A stretch of DNA of 29,331 nt from Candidatus Firestoneibacteriota bacterium (GTDB lineage Bacteria; Oederibacteriota; D2-FULL-39-29; JBBTED01): positions 1 through 29,331 of the forward strand of contig JBBTED010000159.1 in the NCBI GenBank assembly GCA_038042445.1. The letters are read 5' to 3'. Position numbers and translations under genes: made by a program. Below, piece after piece: positions 1 through 28,055 of this stretch (positions are counted from its first letter, which is position 1; each line of letters begins with the position of its first letter). The notes below the pieces were generated by a model, which saw only the letters and a program-made list of their open reading frames with translations, ran no database searches and was not told the DNA's origin.

Positions 1-234
1 TGCCATAGAAAGTTGTTTTCTGGAATCTGTACCATTAAATATTACATCTTCCATATTACTTCCACGCAATGATTTTGCGCTTTGTTCGCCAAGAACCCAT
101 CTTATAGCATCACTTATATTAGTTTTGCCACATCCATTTGGCCCAATTACTGCTGTAATCCCCGGCTCAAACAATAATTCAGTTTTATCAACAAAGGATT
201 TAAACCCATATACCTCTAATTTTTTAAAATGCAT
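1..234 (-). CDS. smc: Chromosome segregation protein SMC, N-terminal part (continues past the left edge)
   Basis: Manual translation: [68 protein letters not shown]. It has GFKSF, Walker [10 protein letters not shown] and [14 protein letters not shown], typical of SMC. AGGAG RBS at ~244-248. Confidence 0.96.
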
Positions 235-292
235 TTTTCTATTCTCCTATTTAATATAATTTTCGTATATAATGTGGTATTTATTTATAAAA

Positions 293-337
293 CTACTATA
301 TATGGTATATAATCACAAAAAAGTGTATTTTTGTCAA
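293..337 (-). promoter_or_regulatory. sigma70-like promoter of smc with an adjacent NrdR-box-like palindrome
   Basis: Minus strand TTGACA (337-332)-N17-GATTAT preceded by TGn. ctaCtAtATaTgGtat (293-308) resembles the NrdR consensus acaCwAtATaTwGtgt. Confidence 0.5.
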
Positions 338-365
338 GTATTTTTGCGGGAGAAAACTCTAAAAT

Positions 366-800
366 TTATTCTATTACAAAGCCAGTAATTTCTCTCATTT
401 TTTTATTTATTATTATATTACAGTATTCCACACCATTAAGATTAATATACGGTGCAAGAATTTCTTTATAAAAGGGATTTGCATAGTGAGGTGATCGATA
501 GGGTATATATATTAAGGCGTCTATAGGCATGTTTGATAATGTTGGTATTGTTTCAAATTGTATTTTTAGGAAACCGAATTCCTCACTGTCTTTTTCATTA
601 CTAGTTTTTAACCAATTTATAGGTGGAGTTTTGATATCCGGTGAATATATTACAAGCGGAGATTCTAAAAGCAAATTAATAGTTCCATTATAATATGCAT
701 CAATGTTTGGTATATATTTTTTTAAAAAAGGCTTTTGTAACGGGATCGTACACAATGATGCCTTACCTAAACCCTTTTGTATTTTCCCTTTAATTTTCAT
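366..800 (-). CDS. Cassette ORF, distant CTP-dependent (archaeal-type) riboflavin kinase / DUF120-like protein
   Basis: KGKIQKGLGKAS, YNGTINL, RSPH and EILAP resemble the RibK motifs GxVxSGxGEG, PYPGTLN, RTxH and EIIAP. Begins 10 nt after the GTTAGAA core. Confidence 0.55.
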   Translation of the reverse strand: MKIKGKIQKGLGKASLCTIPLQKPFLKKYIPNIDAYYNGTINLLLESPLVIYSPDIKTPPINWLKTSNEKDSEEFGFLKIQFETIPTLSNMPIDALIYIPYRSPHYANPFYKEILAPYINLNGVEYCNIIINKKMREITGFVIE

Positions 801-810
801 TATTTTTTAT

Positions 811-892
811 TTCTAACAGTATAAACTCATCAATTCTTAACAGCTACGGTTTTTCACCACTATTAAAAATCTGATGAAGCGACTTGTTAGGA
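811..892 (-). mobile_element. attC site (82 bp)
   Basis: Minus strand TCCTAAC-aagtcg-CTTCATCA...TGATGAG-tttatact-GTTAGAA. The L''/L' arms pair with one extrahelical base and the spacer is unpaired. Confidence 0.88.
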
Positions 893-901
893 TACATACT
901 T

Positions 902-1501
902 TCAATAACCAAATAGCATGGAAAGGAACCCTTTTTTTCTTTGGTTAGCTGCCAAATTAACTTGGTTTGCTATTTCCTCAATTCTTGCGACATCGCCAGC
1001 ACGAATGTTAAATTGCGGCACAATAACGTTCATATGTTCATCATTTATATCGAGGTTTTTCTGAATCCATTCCAAACCACAAAGCGTCGAGGTATTTGCA
1101 TCTGTTTCATATCCTATTTTTGCTATTTCTTTTATCCTTTTGTTATACACCAGTGCAAAATCTCTAAATTCTTTATCCAACTGTTGTGATGCTAAAAAAG
1201 CGACTCCTTCGTTTGATTTATCTTCAGCTAATTCATACGCTGTCCTAAGAACAATGCTCTTCATACTCTGCTCCATCAAATCTCTCCGTAAAGTGGTATT
1301 GCTAAGATTTGACCAGACGCCATTTGCATAAGCCCAGTTAAGAAAAGAAAATATCTTAAAAATGGTAACGATTTGCTTTTCTGATACTAGCTTATTGACA
1401 GTTTCTTTCACAATTTGCAGAAAGAGTTCTTTGTGTTGATGAGCGTATTTGGCTCCTGCGTCTGCAATAAGATTACATAATTCCACCAAAGCCAAGTTCA
1501 T
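902..1501 (-). CDS. Cassette-encoded hypothetical protein (~199 aa; alternative start 1534)
   Basis: ORF between GTTAGGA (1534-1540) and TCCTAAC (886-892). GGAGG RBS precedes ATG at 1501. No recognisable family. Confidence 0.8.
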   Translation of the reverse strand: MNLALVELCNLIADAGAKYAHQHKELFLQIVKETVNKLVSEKQIVTIFKIFSFLNWAYANGVWSNLSNTTLRRDLMEQSMKSIVLRTAYELAEDKSNEGVAFLASQQLDKEFRDFALVYNKRIKEIAKIGYETDANTSTLCGLEWIQKNLDINDEHMNVIVPQFNIRAGDVARIEEIANQVNLAANQRKKGFLSMLFGY

Positions 1502-1533
1502 TTGGCAATCCTCCGTTTTTATAATCAGTTTCA

Positions 1534-1640
1534 TCCTAACAATTAATATACAAAGTTCCTAGTTACCTGCCTGCCGTCAGGTAGCTCAAAAACTTCCTAT
1601 AAATTTATCAAATTTTATCTCTATATTTGCTGTAAGTCAA
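1534..1640 (-). promoter_or_regulatory. Pc-like promoter followed by an attI-like recombination core
   Basis: TTGACT (1640-1635)-N17-TAAAAT (1617-1612), then a GC hairpin (1561-1586), then AACTTTGTATATTAATT-GTTAGGA. The GTT core has no matching attC left arm. Confidence 0.6.
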
Positions 1641-1656
1641 TAAATACTACTTTAAC

Positions 1657-1676
1657 ACTCAAATGATTTGTTGGGC
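1657..1676 (-). mobile_element. Truncated attC (R'' and start of L'' only)
   Basis: GCCCAAC-aaatcatttgagt lies 6 nt after the ORF stop and is the exact complement of this cassette's start core GTTGGGC. No palindromic right arm follows. Confidence 0.65.
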
Positions 1677-1682
1677 TTTTTA

Positions 1683-2333
1683 TTATTTCATGATATATTC
1701 ATTATATATTTGGTAAAAAGTATTCAGTAGATTTACTCTTTTTCCTTTTGTTTCTTCCTTTTTCAATACCCTCGACAAAGGGACTCTATAAAAAACATCC
1801 GCATGTTGCACATTAGGACAATAGCTTTGCTGTTCACTCATTTCTTTGCGTACTCTTTCATACAACTCACGCTCAGCTTCTTCGTAATATTCTTCACCAA
1901 CTTTGAGAAACATATTTTTTTTGTTTTCAGAATATTCAGAAAATGGAGCATTTTCTTTGATCCATGACTTCATTGGCTCCGTTTCAAGCTGATATAAAGC
2001 AGCATTCATGCCAATAAACTGAATAGCATCTTCAGGCACCATATTATCAACATATTTGCATAAACCCTGCTGTTCATCATTTGGTTCTGCGTCAAGTGTA
2101 TATAAGTAGTCAGCAAGCCATTCAAGATATTCATGGTATTCATTATCAGAAGTACATACGCCAATAAAATTTCCGTATTTATCTTTAGGAACTTCACCAT
2201 AACGATTATCTTTCCCCCATCTCACACCTACATATATAAGGCCGATAGGAACTATTTGTTCGTCCGACCTGCCGGGAAATGCCTTGCGTAAGATGTCCAT
2301 CATAGGACTATTGTTATTTCCATTTTTTTTCAT
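1683..2333 (-). CDS. Cassette-encoded hypothetical acidic protein (~216 aa)
   Basis: ATG at 2333 lies 8 nt after GTTGGGC. The track's start at 2384 falls inside the attC. Confidence 0.8.
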   Translation of the reverse strand: MKKNGNNNSPMMDILRKAFPGRSDEQIVPIGLIYVGVRWGKDNRYGEVPKDKYGNFIGVCTSDNEYHEYLEWLADYLYTLDAEPNDEQQGLCKYVDNMVPEDAIQFIGMNAALYQLETEPMKSWIKENAPFSEYSENKKNMFLKVGEEYYEEAERELYERVRKEMSEQQSYCPNVQHADVFYRVPLSRVLKKEETKGKRVNLLNTFYQIYNEYIMK

Positions 2334-2341
2334 TTTTGTTA

Positions 2342-2403
2342 GCCCAACATTAAAAATTACCTGCCAAGCCAAAAACTTAGTCAAGTGGACTAAATTGTTA
2401 TGA
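2342..2403 (-). mobile_element. attC site (62 bp)
   Basis: TCATAAC-aattta-gtccacttgactaag ttt ttggcttggcaggtaat-ttttaat-GTTGGGC. The upstream ORF stop TAA lies in R''. Confidence 0.8.
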
Positions 2404-3045
2404 AATAATTAATTCATTAGCTAAATATTCCAATAATTTTGTCATCTCATTTTGGTCGCTCTGCAGATGCAATTGCTCTATAATTTCTTGATTATTTATT
2501 TGATCACCTACCATTTCAATAACATATTTGCTGTTTAATATTATAGTATCTCTGTGCTCTATATTATGTACTGGTTCAAAGAATTGTATTGCACCAACTA
2601 AAAGTCTCGCAAAATTAGTTTTAGATAATCTATTTTTTGCACGCAATATAAATACTTCGTGAGAATGCTTATCCATATTATCGTTAAAAAAATCGTCATA
2701 GGCAGTTTTAATATCTTTGATAAAAGTGTAAGGTTTTAGTAAATCTTCAAGAGAGGTAAGTAGTCTGTCAAGAATACCTATAGTAATTAATAGTTTGAAT
2801 TCTTGACTATAGTCCTCTTTATTCATAATACTTATAATATCAATGATCCCAATAGTCATTAACTCCTTAGTAATATAATTTTCTAATTCATATTTTGATG
2901 GAAATCTCTTTTTAATGAGTTTACCGGATTTTGGTCGTTTATTATAGCCAAACGACTGCCATGTAGCATCATTATCCACAATGCCACCTATTATCCCTGT
3001 TAGGATATCTACTAATTGGTTTATATCATTTGTTTTATTTTTCAT
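2398..3045 (-). CDS. Cassette-encoded hypothetical protein (215 aa)
   Basis: ATG lies inside core GTTATGA (3048-3042) and the stop lies inside the complementary TCATAAC. Confidence 0.82.
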   Translation of the reverse strand: MKNKTNDINQLVDILTGIIGGIVDNDATWQSFGYNKRPKSGKLIKKRFPSKYELENYITKELMTIGIIDIISIMNKEDYSQEFKLLITIGILDRLLTSLEDLLKPYTFIKDIKTAYDDFFNDNMDKHSHEVFILRAKNRLSKTNFARLLVGAIQFFEPVHNIEHRDTIILNSKYVIEMVGDQINNQEIIEQLHLQSDQNEMTKLLEYLANELIIS

Positions 3046-3063
3046 AACATCTTATTCCCATAT

Positions 3064-3333
3064 TTATTTTATATCACCCTTACGAAATAGAAATTCCGTA
3101 AAACCTCCGCCACGTGATAGTTCAAATACAGCAATAAACTTAGACTCGAACTTTAATAGCTTGATTGCAGTATCAATACATGGATCAGAAACATATTGGT
3201 CAAAAAAACCGGCTAACTCCTTGGGTATTACAGCGCCTGAAAATTTCTTAATTAGGATACTCTTTGCCATCTCAAAATTACAGTTTTCAAGTTGCTCTCT
3301 AAGTTTCTTTTCATTCAGAAATTCATTTGCCAT
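3064..3333 (-). CDS. Cassette-encoded small hypothetical protein (~89 aa)
   Basis: ATG at 3333 follows GTTAAGA-GGGA (RBS-like). The track's start at 3354 overlaps the attC. Confidence 0.7.
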   Translation of the reverse strand: MANEFLNEKKLREQLENCNFEMAKSILIKKFSGAVIPKELAGFFDQYVSDPCIDTAIKLLKFESKFIAVFELSRGGGFTEFLFRKGDIK

Positions 3334-3345
3334 TATATGGTTCCC

Positions 3346-3404
3346 TCTTAACATAAAAATCAGCCGCCGATCTTTTTGCAGTCAGCTGTATCGCCTCGTT
3401 AAGT
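3346..3404 (-). mobile_element. attC site (59 bp, classic 59-base-element size)
   Basis: ACTTAAC-gaggcga-tacagctgactgc aaaaa gatcggcggctga-tttttat-GTTAAGA. The upstream ORF stop lies in R''. Confidence 0.92.
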
Positions 3405-3884
3405 ACGTTTTTTTGATATGTTTCCTTTTTCAGATTCTTCTTTCACCTTTTCCCACTCTGCCTTCAGCATTACTTGTGTCTCTGAGATTAAATCTCTGAG
3501 AGCTTCTTTAAGCTCGTTATGTTTACTTTTATCTGTTAAACACGGTATCTTATCTACTAATTCAGTAATTTTTTTATCAGCTGTGTCATTTGAATTCAAC
3601 CTAAGTTTTATGATATGTCTTAAATGATCAATCTGTAACAAAACATTTTGTTCATCGGGCTTACCTTGCAAATTTGAAAAAGACCATGTATAGGTCAGCC
3701 CACAAAATTTTGATATATCTTGACGTATCTGCTCACTCCATTCAATGCGTTGCTTTGTAACTGTGTTAATGAAATTAGTTTTTTTCGTTTGTAAATAGTT
3801 GTTAATTAGATTCCAAATACCGAGGATAAATGTTAATCCTATTCCAACGGCATAAACAATATCTTTAGTTTCCATAAGTTTCAT
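3399..3884 (-). CDS. Cassette-encoded hypothetical protein with an N-terminal transmembrane helix
   Basis: Hydrophobic IVYAVGIGLTFILGIWNLI followed by a helical region with KQRIEWSEQIRQDISKF. Bounded by GTTGAGT and ACTTAAC. Confidence 0.82.
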   Translation of the reverse strand: MKLMETKDIVYAVGIGLTFILGIWNLINNYLQTKKTNFINTVTKQRIEWSEQIRQDISKFCGLTYTWSFSNLQGKPDEQNVLLQIDHLRHIIKLRLNSNDTADKKITELVDKIPCLTDKSKHNELKEALRDLISETQVMLKAEWEKVKEESEKGNISKKRT

Positions 3885-3899
3885 TCATTATTCTTTTGA

Positions 3900-3971
3900 A
3901 CTCAACGCCAAAACTCACTGGCGCTTTAGTGCGACAGCAATAAAGTGTCCAATGCAGCGATATTGTTAGAC
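3900..3971 (-). mobile_element. attC site (72 bp)
   Basis: GTCTAAC-aatatc-gctgcattggacactttattgc tgtc gcactaaagcgccagtgag-ttttggc-GTTGAGT, a long imperfect hairpin. Confidence 0.92.
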
Positions 3972-4240
3972 TTTTTATTTATATATTTGCTTTTGAGAGG
4001 GTATTTTTCAGGATGCTCAAGATTGTCTATTTCTAAATCAACATCTAAATCTGGCCAATAGAGATGAAAACCATGAAGTAATTTTACATTTTGGATTGAT
4101 TTTAAGGTTTGGTCTCTAAAATAAGGATATTCATCGAAAGTCAAAAAATACTCTCTTCCTTTTACGAATAACCATATCCCAAACGATGAAATATTTTCAA
4201 CTGATACTGAAATGTTTTTTCCATTCTTTAATGATTTCAT
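3926..4240 (-). CDS. DUF2442 family protein (putative antitoxin)
   Basis: VENISSFGIWLFVKGREYFLTFDEYPYF...LYWPDLDVDLEIDNLEHPEKYPL is typical of DUF2442. The ORF reads into the attC. Confidence 0.85.
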   Translation of the reverse strand: MKSLKNGKNISVSVENISSFGIWLFVKGREYFLTFDEYPYFRDQTLKSIQNVKLLHGFHLYWPDLDVDLEIDNLEHPEKYPLKSKYINKKSNNIAALDTLLLSH

Positions 4241-4291
4241 TTTTATGCTTTCCTGTTTGATGTTGACAATTTCCAATTTCTTTTTGTCAAA

Positions 4292-4558
4292 TTATAATTT
4301 ATCCCATACAGGGATATCTTCTTTTGAATACTTTTTATTCGACATAATATTGTCGTAATTACTTAATATTTCTTCGCGGGTTTTATTCTTCAATATTTTT
4401 TGGATATACTTATTATCTTCAATTTCAACTATTTCTTTTGTAAATGCGAATAATGCAAACTGATTTATTGATACTCCTTGTGTATCAGATATTTTTTCAA
4501 TTTCATTTTTCAACCTTTTTGGTATACGAATAGTTAAAACACTAGCTTTATTTTTCAT
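4292..4558 (-). CDS. Ribbon-helix-helix (CopG/HicB-like) antitoxin
   Basis: VLTIRIPKRLKNEIEKISDTQGVSINQF is an RHH pattern. Overlaps the PIN gene by 11 nt. Confidence 0.85.
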   Translation of the reverse strand: MKNKASVLTIRIPKRLKNEIEKISDTQGVSINQFALFAFTKEIVEIEDNKYIQKILKNKTREEILSNYDNIMSNKKYSKEDIPVWDKL

Positions 4559-4982
4559 TTTTTTTCCTCCAATATTTCAAAAAATTAGATGAGGTGTCAA
4601 TTTTGAGATCGTAAAATTTTAATTCGGCATTATTTTTAAAATCACTAATATTTTGTGTGATAACCCAATCGGCATTGCCGTTTAATGCCAATTCAACAAA
4701 TATATTATCATCTTCATCTTGTAAATTAGGCCGCCATAAGTAATGTGGAATAATCCGTTTACCAATATAAGCAAAATATACCAAAAGGTCATCAACATTT
4801 TCTTTGGTTAAATTTAGCTCTCGAAGATTTCGCTTTAGAACTTCTTCATATTCAGTAATTACTGCTGTTGAAATCAGTAATGTCAATTCCCCTGACCTTA
4901 TTAAGGACAATATCTTATGCGATGCGCCTTCTTCACTATAGATTGCTTGAAATAGCACATTTGTATCTAATACTATTTTCAT
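4548..4982 (-). CDS. PIN-domain toxin (PIN_3-type TA toxin)
   Basis: MKIVLDTNV, EYEEVL, WRPNLQDEDDNIFVELA and VITQNISDF are the acidic PIN motifs. Confidence 0.92.
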   Translation of the reverse strand: MKIVLDTNVLFQAIYSEEGASHKILSLIRSGELTLLISTAVITEYEEVLKRNLRELNLTKENVDDLLVYFAYIGKRIIPHYLWRPNLQDEDDNIFVELALNGNADWVITQNISDFKNNAELKFYDLKIDTSSNFLKYWRKKNEK

Positions 4983-4988
4983 ATTTAT

Positions 4989-5017
4989 ATGATAGTATAT
5001 TTGCTATCACACGTCAA
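4989..5017 (-). promoter_or_regulatory. TA promoter with palindromic operator; probably a leaderless transcript
   Basis: TTGACG (5017-5012)-N17-TATCAT (4994-4989), 6 nt before the ATG. TGATAG-N8-CTATCA (4990-5009) overlaps the -10 and spacer. Confidence 0.75.
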
Positions 5018-5084
5018 GTGGTTTTTGATTTTAATTTTCATGGAGTGTCCCTTTCCGACTAGACGGATAATACTTTAGCTTATA

Positions 5085-5119
5085 AATCTCCCCTAACCCC
5101 TCTTTTTCAAAGAGGGGGA
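5085..5119. repeat. REP-like palindrome family A (CCCCT...AAAGRGGGG)
   Basis: aatctcccctaacccctctttttcaaagaggggga, with similar copies at 8203-8240 and 20676-20708. Confidence 0.8.
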
Positions 5120-5153
5120 ATTCTATAAAAACTTAAAACTATTATTGAGACGT

Positions 5154-8018
5154 CTACTTAATAAGACGTTTGTAGTATTCGTTTAGTAGTTCTTGGTAGG
5201 CTTTGGGGAATTTTTCTTTGAGTGCTTCTATAATGTCTTCTCTGAAACTTTTGGGGGGTTGGTATTCATCACGTGATGGAACTTTTACATAACCTTCTGA
5301 AACTCCCATATCTCCACTCTCTGACATTCCTTTTTGTCCTGGTTTTAAAAATCTAACTTGTGGCTTGCCTGCTCCTGACATTCCTTCACTTTCAATGCCC
5401 TGCATTAATGAATTAAATGCTTCCTTGCTATTAGAAAGATGTTGCAAGGCTTCTGCTTCTTTTGAAAGCGCACTTCCTGTATCAGCGGATTTAAGATTCA
5501 AAGAGGCATTATCCATAGAATCGCCGGCAATCTTCAAATTACTTTTTATATCTTCTACATTTTTGCCAAGTTCTGGATTTGCCAAAGAAAGTTTTTTGCC
5601 AAAATCTTTTACCTTGTCCAACAATTTATCTGTTTTGGATTTAGTTTCTTTTTGATCTGCTGAAAGTTTATTCAATGCTGATTCTTCTTTAGTTCTATAT
5701 TTTTCTTTTAACTCAGTATCTGCTTTTTTAATCTCATTTAAAATATCTATTTCCCTTAATTTTAATTCTTCTGATTGGGCAGTTGCATATAAAAGTGATT
5801 CTATTTTTTTATCAATTTTGTTTTTCTGGGTACTTAAAATTTCTATTTGCTTCTGCACATTTACATCTTCAGATTTATTTTTTGCTAATTCAGTGATTTT
5901 TTTTGACAATTCATTTTGCACTGGCTTATCTCTTTCACCAACACTTTTAGTAATATTCTCCATATTCTCCAAAGAACGAATTGCATTATTAACATACGTC
6001 AATAAATTTCTAAGCTGGCCTATTTGCAGCTCTGCTAATGCAAATGACATATTATTCAAAGCATCATTTCCATTATTCATAAACTGCGGAAAGACTTCAG
6101 GATAATTAAGTTCTATTGGTGCTTTTGATACAAGATTTTTAGTGTCATTTAATATTTTCTGTTGTAAATCAGCAAGTTTTTTTAGCAATTTTTCCTGCTC
6201 TGAAATTAGAGATTCTGTACGGTCTTTATCTTTCTCACCTGTTTTTTCAAATAATGCTTGTTCTTCTTTAATTATGTCCTCAAGTTCTTTTGAGCTTGAA
6301 TTTGCCTCTAAAGACAAACCTCTGTCCTGAAAAAATTTAGCGCGATTCCCTGCTTTTGCCATCATTTCCATTAATGAAGAAAGTTTTTCAGACAAAGCTT
6401 TGGCTAAAGCCAATGCTTTATCGTAATCACCGGAATTCAGACTTTCTTCTAATTCACGTAAAAATTCATTCATCTTCCCAAAATCCATATTTTTTACACT
6501 TTTAGAATCAAAGTATTCCTGTGGAAAAGCCTTTGAAAGCTCAGCAATACTATTTTGCAAGTTCTCCATTAATTGTGCTATACGTTCAATATCGCCTCTG
6601 AGTTTTTTTGTTTTCTCTTCATCCCATTTGCCGGACATTTTCTCTAAATCACTTAAGAAATCCTGTGTTCTTTTGTAGAGACGTTCACTATTTTTTATCA
6701 TATCTTCCAATTTTTCATCGTCTATATCTTGAGTTAAAGCTTCTATCTCTTTATTTACATCATACACCTGTATTTTAATAACATTTGACACGCCTTTATT
6801 AGGTCCAGTAATAACATCATTATCTGTAGCCTCCAAATAAATTTCAATTGCATCTGAAAATTGCAATGCAAGATTAGATAAATCCCATTCTGTTTCAAGA
6901 ATTTCATTTTTAAAAGGATTATTCCTGTTGCATATATTTAATCTGCTTATTTCTTTAGATTTTTTACATACTAAATCAACAGATTTAACTCCAAAATCAT
7001 CACTTGCTTCATAAATTATTTTTATTTTTGATTTTGGCAAAACCACTAAATCCTGTTCAGGTGACAAAATTTTGATTTGTGGATTTTCATCCTTAAGTGC
7101 ATAAACATAATTCACAAATGAACTCTTTGTTGTAATTTTCTTATAATCTTCAGCTTCAATACAATACTCAGCATCTTTTCTAATTTTAAACCATCCTTCA
7201 AGAGTTTTCTCGTCATTTACATTCATTTCAACTGGAACATCTTTTATATGAGAAAGTTTTTCATTGGCATTAAACTTAAGCATTAGAAATGCTTTTTCAA
7301 TTGGTTTATTTGCTTTTGCAGTTATACAAACATTGCTTCCAATAAGAGCTTCTACATTTCCACCATCTTTTCCATTGTAAGGAGCTAATTTTGTATATTT
7401 AGGTGGAAAAATTTTAACAGACACATCTCCAATTTCAGGCATAATTACCTTTACTGCTAAATTTTGTTCAGAATAATTTTTCAAAGGATGTCTTAATTGC
7501 AAAATTGCTTTACTAAAATCTTGTGTGCATATAAAAGCAAAAACAATAATACCAAAAGCAAGCACAGCAGAATATAATAATTTTATCTTAACAGACTTTA
7601 TTGGAAATATTTCTTTTAAATTTATTAACTCGATTTTTTGGGATATATTTTGAATAAAACTATGCGCTAAATCTTCAGATACATTTTGGAATGTATTTTT
7701 ATTAATTTCTCTTTCTATTTGTAGTGCATTTATTAAATCGTCTTTTAGATACTTATTCTTAGCCTGAATTTCAAGTGCCAAATCATCATCTGAAAAACCT
7801 GACAATTCTAAATTAAAGTTGCCTGCAAAAGAAAACAGTAGAATAAAAATATTTATTATTATTGTCCATATTGCAGGTATCCCTATTTGCACACCAATTA
7901 CAAAAAATGAAAAGAATAAAAAAGAAAATAAACAAATATTAGCTAAAAAATCTAATAGTAGTACATAAATTTTTCTTGTTTTTGTATGCTTTATAAATTC
8001 TGCTATTTTGCTGTGCAT
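5154..8018 (-). CDS. DUF4175-like membrane-anchored coiled-coil protein (954 aa)
   Basis: N-terminal TM helices, PPKYT, DENPQIKI...YEASDDFGV...ATDND beta domain, a long coiled coil and C-terminal PKAYQELLNEYYKRL. Confidence 0.75.
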   Translation of the reverse strand: MHSKIAEFIKHTKTRKIYVLLLDFLANICLFSFLFFSFFVIGVQIGIPAIWTIIINIFILLFSFAGNFNLELSGFSDDDLALEIQAKNKYLKDDLINALQIEREINKNTFQNVSEDLAHSFIQNISQKIELINLKEIFPIKSVKIKLLYSAVLAFGIIVFAFICTQDFSKAILQLRHPLKNYSEQNLAVKVIMPEIGDVSVKIFPPKYTKLAPYNGKDGGNVEALIGSNVCITAKANKPIEKAFLMLKFNANEKLSHIKDVPVEMNVNDEKTLEGWFKIRKDAEYCIEAEDYKKITTKSSFVNYVYALKDENPQIKILSPEQDLVVLPKSKIKIIYEASDDFGVKSVDLVCKKSKEISRLNICNRNNPFKNEILETEWDLSNLALQFSDAIEIYLEATDNDVITGPNKGVSNVIKIQVYDVNKEIEALTQDIDDEKLEDMIKNSERLYKRTQDFLSDLEKMSGKWDEEKTKKLRGDIERIAQLMENLQNSIAELSKAFPQEYFDSKSVKNMDFGKMNEFLRELEESLNSGDYDKALALAKALSEKLSSLMEMMAKAGNRAKFFQDRGLSLEANSSSKELEDIIKEEQALFEKTGEKDKDRTESLISEQEKLLKKLADLQQKILNDTKNLVSKAPIELNYPEVFPQFMNNGNDALNNMSFALAELQIGQLRNLLTYVNNAIRSLENMENITKSVGERDKPVQNELSKKITELAKNKSEDVNVQKQIEILSTQKNKIDKKIESLLYATAQSEELKLREIDILNEIKKADTELKEKYRTKEESALNKLSADQKETKSKTDKLLDKVKDFGKKLSLANPELGKNVEDIKSNLKIAGDSMDNASLNLKSADTGSALSKEAEALQHLSNSKEAFNSLMQGIESEGMSGAGKPQVRFLKPGQKGMSESGDMGVSEGYVKVPSRDEYQPPKSFREDIIEALKEKFPKAYQELLNEYYKRLIK

Positions 8019-8050: not shown

Positions 8051-8200
8051 AAACTCGTAAAAGCTCACTAAATACCGTTCCGTTTCGTTGTCATTCCCAA
8101 CTCGATTGGGAATCCAGTGTCTTACTTTTAAAACAACTCTGGATTCCCGATTACTACATTCGGGAATGACACGTGTTTCAGTAAGGATTTACGGAAACTC
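8051..8200. repeat. Composite REP/MITE-like element with two inverted GTCATTCCC-N-GGGAATCCAG units (family B)
   Basis: gtcattcccaactcgattgggaatccag (8090-8117) and ctggattcccgattactacattcgggaatgac (8139-8170), inside imperfect outer arms cgtaaaagctcact / agtaaggatttacg. Confidence 0.75.
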
Positions 8201-8202
8201 TA

Positions 8203-8240
8203 AACTCCCCTCTATCCCCTCTTTAGCAAAGAGGGGAGTT
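8203..8240. repeat. REP-like palindrome family A; may also terminate uvrC
   Basis: aactcccctctatcccctctttagcaaagaggggagtt. Confidence 0.75.
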
Positions 8241-20198: not shown

Positions 20199-20732
20199 CT
20201 AGAAATACTCTATGCTGGTCTTTTTTAATTCACGAAGAGTATATAACAACTTGTAATCATGGATTTTGAGTTTTTTTACAATTTCATCTACATTTTTTTT
20301 ACATTCTTTTTTTGTTTTTCCATGAACCATTGCATATAAATTATATTGCCAGTTTTTATTTGTAAGTCTTTCATAGCAATGAGTGATTTGAGGGAATTTT
20401 GCTATTTCCATACCTATTTTAGATACATTTGCATCTGGTATTTTACATACAAACATTACATTAAACAAAAAACCGGCTTTATTATGCCTAATTGTAGCTC
20501 CAATTCTTCTTATTAAATTTGTTTTTTTCCATAATAATATTTTTTTAATTAAATAATCTTCTGGAACTTTAAATTTTTGCGCCAGAATTTTATATGGATT
20601 TATTGACTCAGGTAAATCAGAAGAAAGCGCATTGATTATCTTTTTATCTAATTTTGTCAGTTTCATATTTTTAAAAATCCCCCTTACTCCCCCTTTTTCA
20701 AAGGGGGAAAGAAAAAGGAATGATTGTTTCAT
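20199..20732 (-). CDS. ahbB: Siroheme decarboxylase beta subunit (Lrp/AsnC fold); conserved part starts at ATG 20666
   Basis: IRRIGATIRHNKAGF, ITHCYER and WQYNLYAMVHG, in the ahb operon. Confidence 0.88.
   Translation of the reverse strand: MKQSFLFLSPFEKGGVRGIFKNMKLTKLDKKIINALSSDLPESINPYKILAQKFKVPEDYLIKKILLWKKTNLIRRIGATIRHNKAGFLFNVMFVCKIPDANVSKIGMEIAKFPQITHCYERLTNKNWQYNLYAMVHGKTKKECKKNVDEIVKKLKIHDYKLLYTLRELKKTSIEYF
20676..20708. repeat. REP-like palindrome family A between or within ahbA and ahbB
   Basis: aatcccccttactccccctttttcaaaggggga. Confidence 0.8.
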
Positions 20733-26571: not shown

Positions 26572-28055
26572 ATTATTTAATGGGCATAGATATAGGAACA
26601 TCAGGAACCAAAACTATAGTTATAAATGAAAATGGCCAGCTAAAAGCTTCTGCTTTTGTTGAACACAAACTTGATTGTCCTAAACCCGGATGGGCACAAC
26701 AAAATCCACAAGAATGGTGGAATGCAGCTGTAGAAAGTATAAAACAAGTATTAAAAAATGGTCATTTAAAAGGCAGTGATATAAAAGGTATAGGTCTTTC
26801 AGGACAAATGCATGGATTGGTTTTAATTGATGATAAATTCAATATATTAATGCCGGCTATATTATGGTGTGATCAAAGAACAGCAAAAGAATGTGAGGAA
26901 ATAAATGAAAAAATTGGTATAGATAAATTAAATGAATATACTTGTAACCCTGCACTTACTGGATTCACTGCACCAAAAATACTTTGGGTAAGAAAACATC
27001 TACCGAAAATTTACAAAAAAATTTACAAAATATTGCTTCCAAAAGATTATATCCGTTTCAAATTAACAGGTGTATTTGCAAGTGAAGTTTCTGATGCATC
27101 TGGAACATTATTGTTTGATGTTAAAAATCGCAAATGGTCAAAAGAAATGTTAAATGCACTTGATATTGATAAAAACAAACTTCCAAAAGTTTATGAATCA
27201 CCTGTTATTTCCGGATATATTACATCTGCTATTGCAAAAGAAACAGGTTTGCTTGAAAAAACTCCAGTAGTTGGTGGAGGCGGTGACCAGGCTGCAGGAG
27301 CCATAGGCAACGGCATAGTTAAACCTGGTATAATCTCTGTAACAATTGGAACATCAGGTGTTGTATTTGCTCATACTGATAAAATTAAAATGGACAAATT
27401 GCAAAGAGTTCATTCTTTTTGCCATGCAGTACCTGAAAAATGGCATATAATGGGTGTAATGCTTTCTGCAGGTGGCTCATTTCAGTGGTTTAAAAATAAT
27501 TTAGGGAATAATCTAAAGTATGATATTTTAACCAAAGAAGCCCAAAAAATCCCTGTTGGCTCAGAAGGTTTAATATTTTTACCGTATCTTATGGGTGAAA
27601 GAACACCACATAAAGACCCTTATGCAAAAGGAGTATTTTTTGGAATAACAATGCGCCATACAAAAGCTCATTTCACACGCTCTATTTTAGAAGGTGTTAC
27701 TTATGGTTTAAGAGATTCTTTGGAAATAATACGGGGTATGAATTTAAAAATAAAGCAAATCAGAGCATCTGGTGGTGGTGCAAAAAGTAAATTCTGGAGA
27801 CAAATTCAGGCAGATGTTTTTAATTCTGAAATCGTAACAATAAATATTTCTGAAGGACCTGCTTTTGGTGTAGCACTATTAGCAGGTGTTGGAGTAAAAA
27901 TTTACAAATCAGTAGAAGAAGCCTGTGAAAAAACTATACGAATTACTTCACACACATACCCAATTAAAAATAATGTGCAAAAATATGAAGAATATTATAA
28001 ACTTTACAACTCCCTATATCCCGCTTTAAAAGATAAATTTAGTAGCAGGTTATAG
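26568..28055 (+). CDS. xylB: Xylulokinase (FGGY family)
   Basis: GIDIGTSG, SGQMHG, ILWCDQR, GFTAPK, SDASGT, GGGDQAAGA, FCHAVP and LPYLMGERTP. Confidence 0.93.
   Translation: MNYLMGIDIGTSGTKTIVINENGQLKASAFVEHKLDCPKPGWAQQNPQEWWNAAVESIKQVLKNGHLKGSDIKGIGLSGQMHGLVLIDDKFNILMPAILWCDQRTAKECEEINEKIGIDKLNEYTCNPALTGFTAPKILWVRKHLPKIYKKIYKILLPKDYIRFKLTGVFASEVSDASGTLLFDVKNRKWSKEMLNALDIDKNKLPKVYESPVISGYITSAIAKETGLLEKTPVVGGGGDQAAGAIGNGIVKPGIISVTIGTSGVVFAHTDKIKMDKLQRVHSFCHAVPEKWHIMGVMLSAGGSFQWFKNNLGNNLKYDILTKEAQKIPVGSEGLIFLPYLMGERTPHKDPYAKGVFFGITMRHTKAHFTRSILEGVTYGLRDSLEIIRGMNLKIKQIRASGGGAKSKFWRQIQADVFNSEIVTINISEGPAFGVALLAGVGVKIYKSVEEACEKTIRITSHTYPIKNNVQKYEEYYKLYNSLYPALKDKFSSRL

Follow-up and report, generated by a model that had tools for sequence, protein, structure and literature searches.

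The locus raises the question of whether the short core sequences at the ends of its genes are the footprint of recombination between G and TT, as in the integron gene cassettes on which Hall, Collis and Stokes reportedly wrote the original papers, and what kind of array would have left them. Within the window (the whole 29,331-nt stretch of DNA that was analysed), the array genes are all co-oriented and begin 3-42 nt behind a core. We consider it highly probable that they form a decayed cassette array of the CALIN type, for which no integrase was found, and that their matching ends are most likely the scar of integrase-mediated insertion of circular cassettes between G and TT. The features are as follows.

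3926..4283 (-), first unit, 5'-truncated: DUF2442 gene (PF10387), ATG at 4240, frame entering attC A
3900..3971 (-), attC A: complete, 72 nt; R'' GTCTAAC 3965-3971, R' GTTGAGT 3900-3906; crossover between G3906 and T3905
3352..3905 (-), cassette 1: 161-aa gene 3399-3884 (start at 3884 or 3875) and attC B
3346..3404 (-), attC B: complete, 59 nt; R'' ACTTAAC, R' GTTAAGA (3346-3352); crossover between G3352 and T3351
3064..3333 (-), 89-aa gene: full length, opened by core GTTAAGA
3042..3056 (-), junction J: core of G3048 followed by TTATGA, overlapping the start codon at 3045; preceded by AATAAGAT, not by an attC
2348..3047 (-), cassette 2: 215-aa gene 2398-3045 and attC C
2342..2403 (-), attC C: complete, decayed, 62 nt; R'' TCATAAC, R' GTTGGGC; crossover between G2348 and T2347
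1657..2347 (-), cassette 3: 216-aa gene 1683-2333 and an attC left arm only (R'' GCCCAAC 1670-1676, L''-like 1657-1664)
1534..1656 (-), module D: AT-rich 116-nt stretch replacing an attC right arm; core of G1540 followed by TTAGGA
817..1539 (-), cassette 4: 198-aa gene 902-1498 (open frame from 1534) and attC E
811..892 (-), attC E: complete, 82 nt; R'' TCCTAAC, R' GTTAGAA 811-817; crossover between G817 and T816
366..800 (-), last unit: 144-aa gene with a predicted CTP-dependent riboflavin-kinase-like fold, opened by core GTTAGAA, no closing attC

By eye, the open frame at 1-234, after the last unit, looks like the start of smc.

Core complementarity across each gene

In a circular cassette the two 7-8-nt R arms would pair, and opening the circle between G and TT would carry TTRRRY to the front of the gene and leave its complement behind the gene; each linear attC would thus be a hybrid of two neighbours. 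The first-pass annotation had placed eight 7-mer cores on the minus strand, and every one of them lies exactly where it was put. It had also claimed that the core before each gene is complementary to the core after the same gene, which proved correct: GTTAGGA (1534-1540) pairs with TCCTAAC (886-892), GTTGGGC (2342-2348) with GCCCAAC (1670-1676) and GTTATGA (3042-3048) with TCATAAC (2397-2403) perfectly, while GTTGAGT (3900-3906) and ACTTAAC (3398-3404) have one mismatch, giving 3, 4, 4 and 4 matches at the four variable positions from the mismatched pair onwards. The eighth base agrees as well in all three perfect pairs. Within the linear sites, the variable-position matches number 0 in A, 3 in B, 1 in C, 2 in D and 3 in E.

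The region 780-4320 holds dozens of GTT and of AAC triplets and the pairs were chosen after the fact, so that chance picking deserves consideration as an explanation. The observed match total was reached in 1 of 24 and 2 of 360 permutations; across the genome, a 7/7 match over the gene is found for only 9 of 2289 ORFs, three of which are consecutive in this array, and the three five-gene windows (of 1329) with at least three matches are all this array. An attC model that is independent of these pairs places the site ends on the same cores; together with the gene-level counts, this refutes chance for sites A, B, C and E and leaves it a negligible probability; the cross-gene match exceeds chance.

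Circularising each cassette in silico and folding the reconstituted site increased the Watson-Crick pairs of the R boxes from 4 to 7, 5 to 7 and 6 to 7, with bottom-strand energies going from -3.5 to -5.1, -11.3 to -16.2 and -4.8 to -7.1 kcal/mol in the same three, whereas site B was unchanged in pairs (6 and 6) and went from -2.9 to -2.7 kcal/mol. The statement that cores match less well inside the linear attC therefore holds for three of the four pairs and fails for the pair with site B. In control integrons the match is perfect across the gene in 18 of 21 cassettes and within the linear site in none of the 21, a set that is not fully independent (one cassette type is present twice) and that omits the first of the Vibrio sites, the truncated site of locus L045 together with the cassette after it, the second site of genome G050, and L041, where no site was found. 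The pattern is what insertion of circular cassettes between G and TT predicts, the control integrons sharing it, and it marks historical 5' ends. A view of it as surprising is not borne out by the published definition of cassettes, which is given in these very terms (PMC2674596). The cross-gene match is an ordinary scar that belongs to the general anatomy of integron cassettes: the 5' TTRRRY is complementary to the unit's own R'' in four of the seven units, the other three lacking one end.

The cores had further been said to fix cassette boundaries and start codons. Historical 5' ends are marked and the starts bounded, since the cores exclude an upstream TTG at 2384 and agree with homologs on starts at 3045 and 2333, but start codons are not fixed. 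The 3399-3884 gene keeps two candidate ATGs (3884 and 3875), and the frame 902-1534 most likely starts at 1498, behind GGAGG, judging from the sequence and from homologs, which start there and not at 1534.

Complete attC sites, cargo and the integrase

The attC model, built solely from eight outside sites, returned A, B, E and C with exact ends as the top four of its seven window matches: A with 25.0 bits (E 0.00027), where arm alignment agrees; B with 24.6 bits (E 0.00034); E with 20.3 bits (E 0.0045); and C fourth with 10.6 bits (E 1.3). All four have pairing L boxes, extrahelical bases and 5-7-nt spacers, and the distances from R'' (AAC) to R' (GTT) of 72, 59, 62 and 82 nt in A, B, C and E lie within the 57-141 nt taken as the criterion. 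An alternative end of site E at GTTAAGA (835-841) was discarded, as the L boxes pair solely with 811-817. Other searches were blunter: an initial attC heuristic was noisy (182 matches, recovering only A and E of the window sites), the genome-wide search with the attC model was insensitive (C95 was found and the window's own sites were missed), and Rfam gave no family in the window at E up to 1.

The stems show decay from which the R arms are almost free, a point that speaks against a worn array, as does the weak score of C. Folding favours the bottom strand for A and the top strand for B and E, with C a tie, although several Vibrio controls favour the top strand too. Top-strand G·T mismatches number 8 of 59 in the stems here versus 0 of 395 in controls, as counted with our own arm aligner, which stopped early on site B; three belong to attC C, which also has mismatches inside the L box. 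Functional attC sites favour G:T on the bottom strand (PMC5027507). Because the stems carry these top-strand mismatches, the scar is a record of past insertion, and present mobility does not follow from it.

None of the five central cargo genes, nor the 144-aa gene, had a match above cut-off in Pfam, NCBIfam or PADLOC. The three cargo genes tested were not found in 98 relatives, and the 198-aa gene has homologs labelled with several phyla. The four genes listed earlier were an incomplete set: a fifth, at 3064-3333, follows core GTTAAGA (3346-3352). In the first unit, positions 4206-4283 are the C-terminal remnant of a small gene (46% over 26 aa) that in relative G001 stands just ahead of DUF2442 and that we take to be DUF4160, and no matching 5' core (GTTAGAC with at most one mismatch) lies in 4200-5200. 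Protein homologs of the cassettes exist, and the array DNA of these homologs was not found in metagenome, genome and viral contigs, plasmids or 301 further genomes, so that reshuffling of these cassettes lacks support; in the homolog loci to which the attC model was applied, it placed no site beside the 89-aa homolog (L032) or the 161-aa homologs (L049, L050).

Four complete attC sites lie within 3.2 kb with no intI nearby, which is a CALIN by both criteria (at least two sites within 4 kb), and the arrangement of a complete integron, with intI beside attI and an array, was not found. No protein in this genome, the present contig included, exceeds the TIGR02249 cut-off for IntI, and tblastn with three IntI proteins retrieved solely Xer-like or phage-like recombinases at no more than 47% identity over partial lengths. 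An intI may nevertheless sit in the unassembled part of the genome, because the assembly is 90% complete (in 181 contigs) and two of the other attC sites, which are scattered on four other contigs, lie on contigs of less than 2 kb. We regard it as unlikely, though, that the array is the far end of a working integron, with units that still move and with an intI that either sits on a contig missing from the assembly or is brought in by mobile DNA. That reading would accommodate the fragmented assembly, the nearly perfect R boxes, the 20-25 bits of A, B and E, a 1045-nt contig (C51) holding a GC-rich attC with good pairing and another clean 8/8 cassette, and the suggestion that mobilisation in trans may be open to CALIN cassettes (PMC4889954). 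It fits poorly with the folding of B and E, which favours the top strand, with the tie in C and with the phylum, where IntI is present in 1 of 99 genomes; nor was any cassette-skipping joint seen in 4 of the 13 listed read runs, whose coverage was low and patchy and which did not include the best-covering runs. The notion that four units remain excisable is not supported, since only 3352-3905 stands between two complete attC sites.

Junctions 3048 and 1540

Every junction had been taken for an attC, yet the perfect 5' cores at 3048 and 1540 have no complete attC ahead of them, and the attC model gives no match at junction 3048 or at site D. Junction 3048 has neither an attC left arm nor an R''; site D (1534-1676) spans 143 nt, with no matching L boxes and an arm alignment score of 2.0. 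These attI-like junctions are the sole unusual part of the array, and two of its four junctions are likely leftovers of an insertion site rather than full hairpin sites. The eight bases left of G3048, AATAAGAT, match the published minimal attI2 remnant at 7 of 8, a level reached by 0.3-0.4% of GTT sites in a comparison made post hoc; junction 1540 matches at 5 of 8, and no parent attI is known for either. A further stretch common to junction 3048 and the G050 attI, GATATAAA, was dismissed as coding sequence of the 89-aa gene. Module D holds a promoter-like pair at 1640-1612 (10/12), about 70 nt before G1540, and a short palindrome at 1566-1581.

The 89-aa gene, which has no closing attC and no closing core within one mismatch, was considered as truncated and found otherwise, its homologs being 88-91 aa and ending at the same place. 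It could in principle share one two-gene cassette with the 215-aa gene, from GTTAAGA (3352) to TCATAAC (2403), a 6/7 match, the core at 3048 being then a start-codon coincidence. GTTAAGA fits that closing core at three of the four variable bases, equal to the accepted pair A-B; 23 of 2034 ORFs have GTTATGA at their start codon; and homologs P0097 and P0098 read ..GN-M in frame, and therefore have no GTT codon before their ATG. The 3048 match is nevertheless 8/8, as at just 14-15 of 2034 ORF starts, the attI2 resemblance beside it would be left to coincidence, and an inspection of the ORF list of L032 showed no 215-aa relative after the 89-aa homolog; we judge the two-gene cassette very unlikely.

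A different account would have the array built in place, with cassettes inserted by a trans-acting integrase at plain chromosomal G/TT sites (attG), the 89-aa and 144-aa genes being residents and module D a promoter native to the 144-aa gene that cassette 4 interrupted. Neither gene has a closing attC, the L032 homolog of the 89-aa gene lies outside any cassette array, the promoter-like pair lies ahead of G1540, attC sites are scattered elsewhere in the genome, and IntI inserts cassettes at GWT, where they can be expressed from nearby promoters (bioRxiv 10.1101/2022.09.11.507474). Against this, the cores before the two genes are GTTRRR, as are only 5.8% of the genome's GWT sites, and are followed 17-19 nt later by the start codon, a spacing that cassettes share; promoter-like sites are no commoner than in shuffles (21 observed versus 25.8); D and the 5' end still require deletions; and no empty insertion site is present among 40 relatives, the nearest of which share only the class. 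We find this account distinctly improbable.

Our preferred history, a decayed integron array, would run as follows. An integron would have taken up cassettes of other lineages and later lost its integrase end by deletion, leaving the first unit 5'-truncated. The 89-aa gene likely lost its attC, and site D its right arm, or else attI-like DNA took their place; either event would have fused units 3351-2348 and 2347-817. C-to-T-type drift may since have weakened bottom-strand folding, so that the array is probably frozen unless an integrase is supplied in trans. More tentatively, and with well under even confidence, this chromosomal, non-clinical array could hold natural delta-attI remnants or attG insertion points at 3048 and 1540, cassettes having entered at two internal non-attC sites, one carrying its own promoter to re-express the array tail; the core match would then serve as a forensic test for such events in integrase-less genomes.

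Relation to known integron structures

CALINs are clusters of attC sites without an integron integrase, most with fewer than six sites (Cury et al. 2016, PMC4889954). The present array likewise has clustered attC sites, genes that share one orientation and have no known function, neither an intI nor a pseudogene of it in the vicinity, and a small size (four complete sites), and it shows no difference in kind from CALINs as characterised there, apart from visible decay and two junctions that are not complete attC sites. In the ACID definition, a cassette begins with the first T of one core and ends with the G of the following one, its own attC being that of the circular form (PMC2674596); crossover takes place between G and TT (PMC8876359, PMC12901181). 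The four pairs show no difference from the definition as worded there, and the core match, which restates it, is in itself of small importance. Its value is one of method: even where an upstream attC has disappeared and attC models are blind, the 5' ends of cassettes can be recovered from the cross-gene match. Fused and truncated cassettes are also already known (PMC8876359, PMC12901181), and the control L045 holds one.

Cassettes whose attC is truncated, or replaced by a partial attI (the delta-attI type), are described from class 1 and 2 mobile integrons (PMC12901181). Here too an ORF is followed by an R'' remnant or nothing and then by AT-rich DNA ending in G/TT; beyond the 7/8 resemblance at 3048, module D with its promoter-like pair recalls the long 244-nt form in layout. 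The array differs in that there is no parent attI to compare, the two junctions are unlike each other, and 3048 is without an R'' remnant. Insertion at attG sites, and the SALINs described by Loot et al. (bioRxiv 10.1101/2022.09.11.507474), are alike in placing cassettes behind a non-att G/TT, in a genome without intI and in one case near a promoter-like site, whereas the displaced flanks here look like the beginnings of cassettes (GTTRRR), and there is no known empty site. If both non-attC junctions are indeed attI remnants or attG sites, they would provide natural chromosomal examples that bear on how CALINs may arise.

Core matches across the cassette genes

The match between the cores on either side of a cassette gene is real, and reading of the sequence confirmed, on the minus strand, all eight cores (7-nt R boxes) located by the first-pass annotation. 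Across the genes, 3, 4, 4 and 4 of the four variable bases match, and in all three perfect core pairs the eighth base is also paired. A covariance model was built from eight attC sites outside the window; the top four of its seven window matches end on cores, and it gave no match at 1534-1676 or 3048. These sites, with the variable-base matches (of 4) within each linear site, are as follows.

Site A, 3900-3971, minus strand: attC, 25.0 bits; 0 matches
Site B, 3346-3404, minus strand: attC, 24.6 bits; 3 matches
Site E, 811-892, minus strand: attC, 20.3 bits; 3 matches
Site C, 2342-2403, minus strand: attC, 10.6 bits; 1 match
Site D, 1534-1676, minus strand: R'' and an L''-like box only, then 116 AT-rich bases; 2 matches
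Junction 3048, minus strand: non-attC, its core overlapping the start codon of the 215-aa gene

The observed match total is reached by 1/24 and 2/360 re-pairings. Throughout the source genome (G000), a perfect cross-gene pair occurs in 9 of 2289 ORFs, and the five-gene windows with at least three such matches (3/1329 genome-wide) all lie in this array. The proposal that cores pair less well within linear attC sites holds for three of the four pairs and fails for B; likewise, circularisation raises R-box pairs from 4, 5 and 6 to 7, while B stays at 6.

The cores were also said to fix the start codons; they bound the start without fixing it, as the 902-1534 frame most likely begins at 1498, where a methionine preceded by GGAGG is the start of most of its 78 homologs (~198 aa). 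The core at 2348 rules out TTG at 2384, consistent with 216-aa homologs, and the ATG within the 3048 core is consistent with P0096, a homolog of the 215-aa product. The 161-aa protein in the Atlas begins at residue 4.

Array layout and non-attC junctions

The first unit is 5'-truncated, its 5' core gone and the partner gene that precedes DUF2442 in a relative (G001) reduced to its last 26 codons. The 89-aa gene, full length and omitted from the first-pass annotation, stops 15 nt before junction 3048 and has no closing core within one mismatch, and the last gene is without a closing attC; the match is therefore seen in four of seven units. Only 3352-3905 is flanked by two complete attC sites. 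At 3926-3971, the DUF2442 frame has no stop in R'' and reads ~45 nt into attC A.

The unusual part of the array is that two perfect 5' cores, at 3048 and 1540, stand behind non-attC DNA. Cassettes with a truncated attC or an attI remnant are described for class 1 and 2 integrons in PMC12901181, and one such truncated attC occurs in the control integron L045; a partial literature search found no chromosomal CALIN (an attC cluster lacking an integron integrase) for which junctions of this type are described. Tentatively, both positions might be attI-remnant or attG insertion points. A two-gene cassette with a coincidental 3048 core would accord with GTTATGA on 23 of 2034 ORF starts and with two homologs lacking an in-frame GTT ahead of the ATG, but is highly improbable given the 8/8 core match and a left flank 7/8 identical to an attI2 remnant, a post hoc likeness shared by 0.3-0.4% of GTT sites. 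The AT-rich stretch of D carries a promoter-like pair (10/12) and a short palindrome; pairs of this kind are no more frequent than in shuffled sequence.

Among the cargo, the 144-aa gene (366-800) has no Pfam match, and its predicted fold lies near the CTP-dependent riboflavin kinase PF01982 (TM 0.68-0.77 in the sole row meeting the naming threshold). The genes at 902-1498 and 1683-2333 represent two conserved families (78 and 21 matches, mostly on short contigs) with no above-cut-off match in Pfam, NCBIfam or PADLOC. Immediately upstream of the array, a gene for a PIN-domain toxin lies with that of a small putative antitoxin (4292-4982), and no cassette core joins them to it. A 37-nt GC-stem repeat lies at 5080-5116, 8199-8235 and 20671-20707 (no fewer than 14 close copies genome-wide), and a second repeat, at 8057-8192, recurs elsewhere in G000 and in relatives.

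Integrase, decay and origin

The matches, the sites and the lack of IntI in the assembly are all direct observations: in G000 (2.81 Mb in 181 contigs, 90% complete) nothing passes the IntI cut-off, and tblastn with three IntI proteins returned other tyrosine recombinases only. IntI is present in 1 of 99 genomes of the phylum, and the three cargo genes tested were not detected in the 98 relatives. A live array with intI unassembled, which would not exclude other readings, is unlikely; no cassette-skipping joints were seen in four read runs, whose cover of the region is patchy. Assembly in place at attG sites (bioRxiv 10.1101/2022.09.11.507474) is decidedly unlikely, being weakened by displaced flanks that lie 17-19 nt ahead of a start codon and are GTTRRR, a form taken by only 5.8% of GWT sites.

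Very probably, an integron integrase inserted the cassettes at G|TT and the array is now a stranded, decaying CALIN, a class treated in PMC4889954, with two fused units; deletions would have occurred, and the array would now be immobile. C>T-type drift may also weaken the recombining strand, as suggested by top-strand G·T in 8 of 59 aligned stem pairs of A, B, C and E (the count for B being limited by an aligner that stopped early) whereas none of 395 pairs across 22 control sites is of this type. For working attC sites the mean G:T number is 1.24 on the bottom strand versus 0.39 on the top one (PMC5027507). Against drift, a better top-strand fold is also seen in several Vibrio controls, and the R arms of the array sites are nearly intact.

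Other attC-like sites and comparison with known integrons

Further sites were found in G000 and, in one case, in a relative (G050).

G000 contig C51 (1045 nt), 186-804, minus strand: well-paired 60-nt attC, then a clean cassette whose ends match 8/8, GTTATAGG / CCTATAAC
G000 contig C95, 26400-28600 (L047, L048): second small decayed array, attC at 27872-27931 (21 bits)
G000 contigs C125, 1674-1740, and C24, 500-558: further attC-like sites
G050 contig C4, 19588-25638 (L030, L033, L034): sole true integron detected in this phylum, inside a phage-like element

The C51 cassette's own attC reaches the L' box and breaks off into other sequence. The C95 array lies behind a nucleotidyltransferase-like gene (labelled by eye); besides its attC, it contains a decayed site at about 27304-27424, and its last left arm is joined to a short repeat. 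The C125 left arm is similarly fused, followed by what may be the start of a REP-associated transposase. Four sites (D, C51, C95 and C125) keep the left arm and have lost the right beside repeat-like DNA.

The cross-gene core match is a general rule for integron cassettes, and the pattern is already known. ACID (PMC2674596) delimits a cassette by the first T of one core and the G of the following one, its attC being the circular form, and crossover is placed between G and TT in PMC8876359 and PMC12901181. The control set, which excluded the first Vibrio site, the truncated L045 site with the cassette after it, the second G050 site and L041 (no site found), comprised a chromosomal integron of Vibrio, four class 1 integrons and the G050 integron, whose first cassette is an 8/8 match to its attI core. 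Scored like the array, it gave perfect matches across 18 of 21 genes, at least three of four bases in 21/21, and perfect matches within 0 of 21 linear sites.
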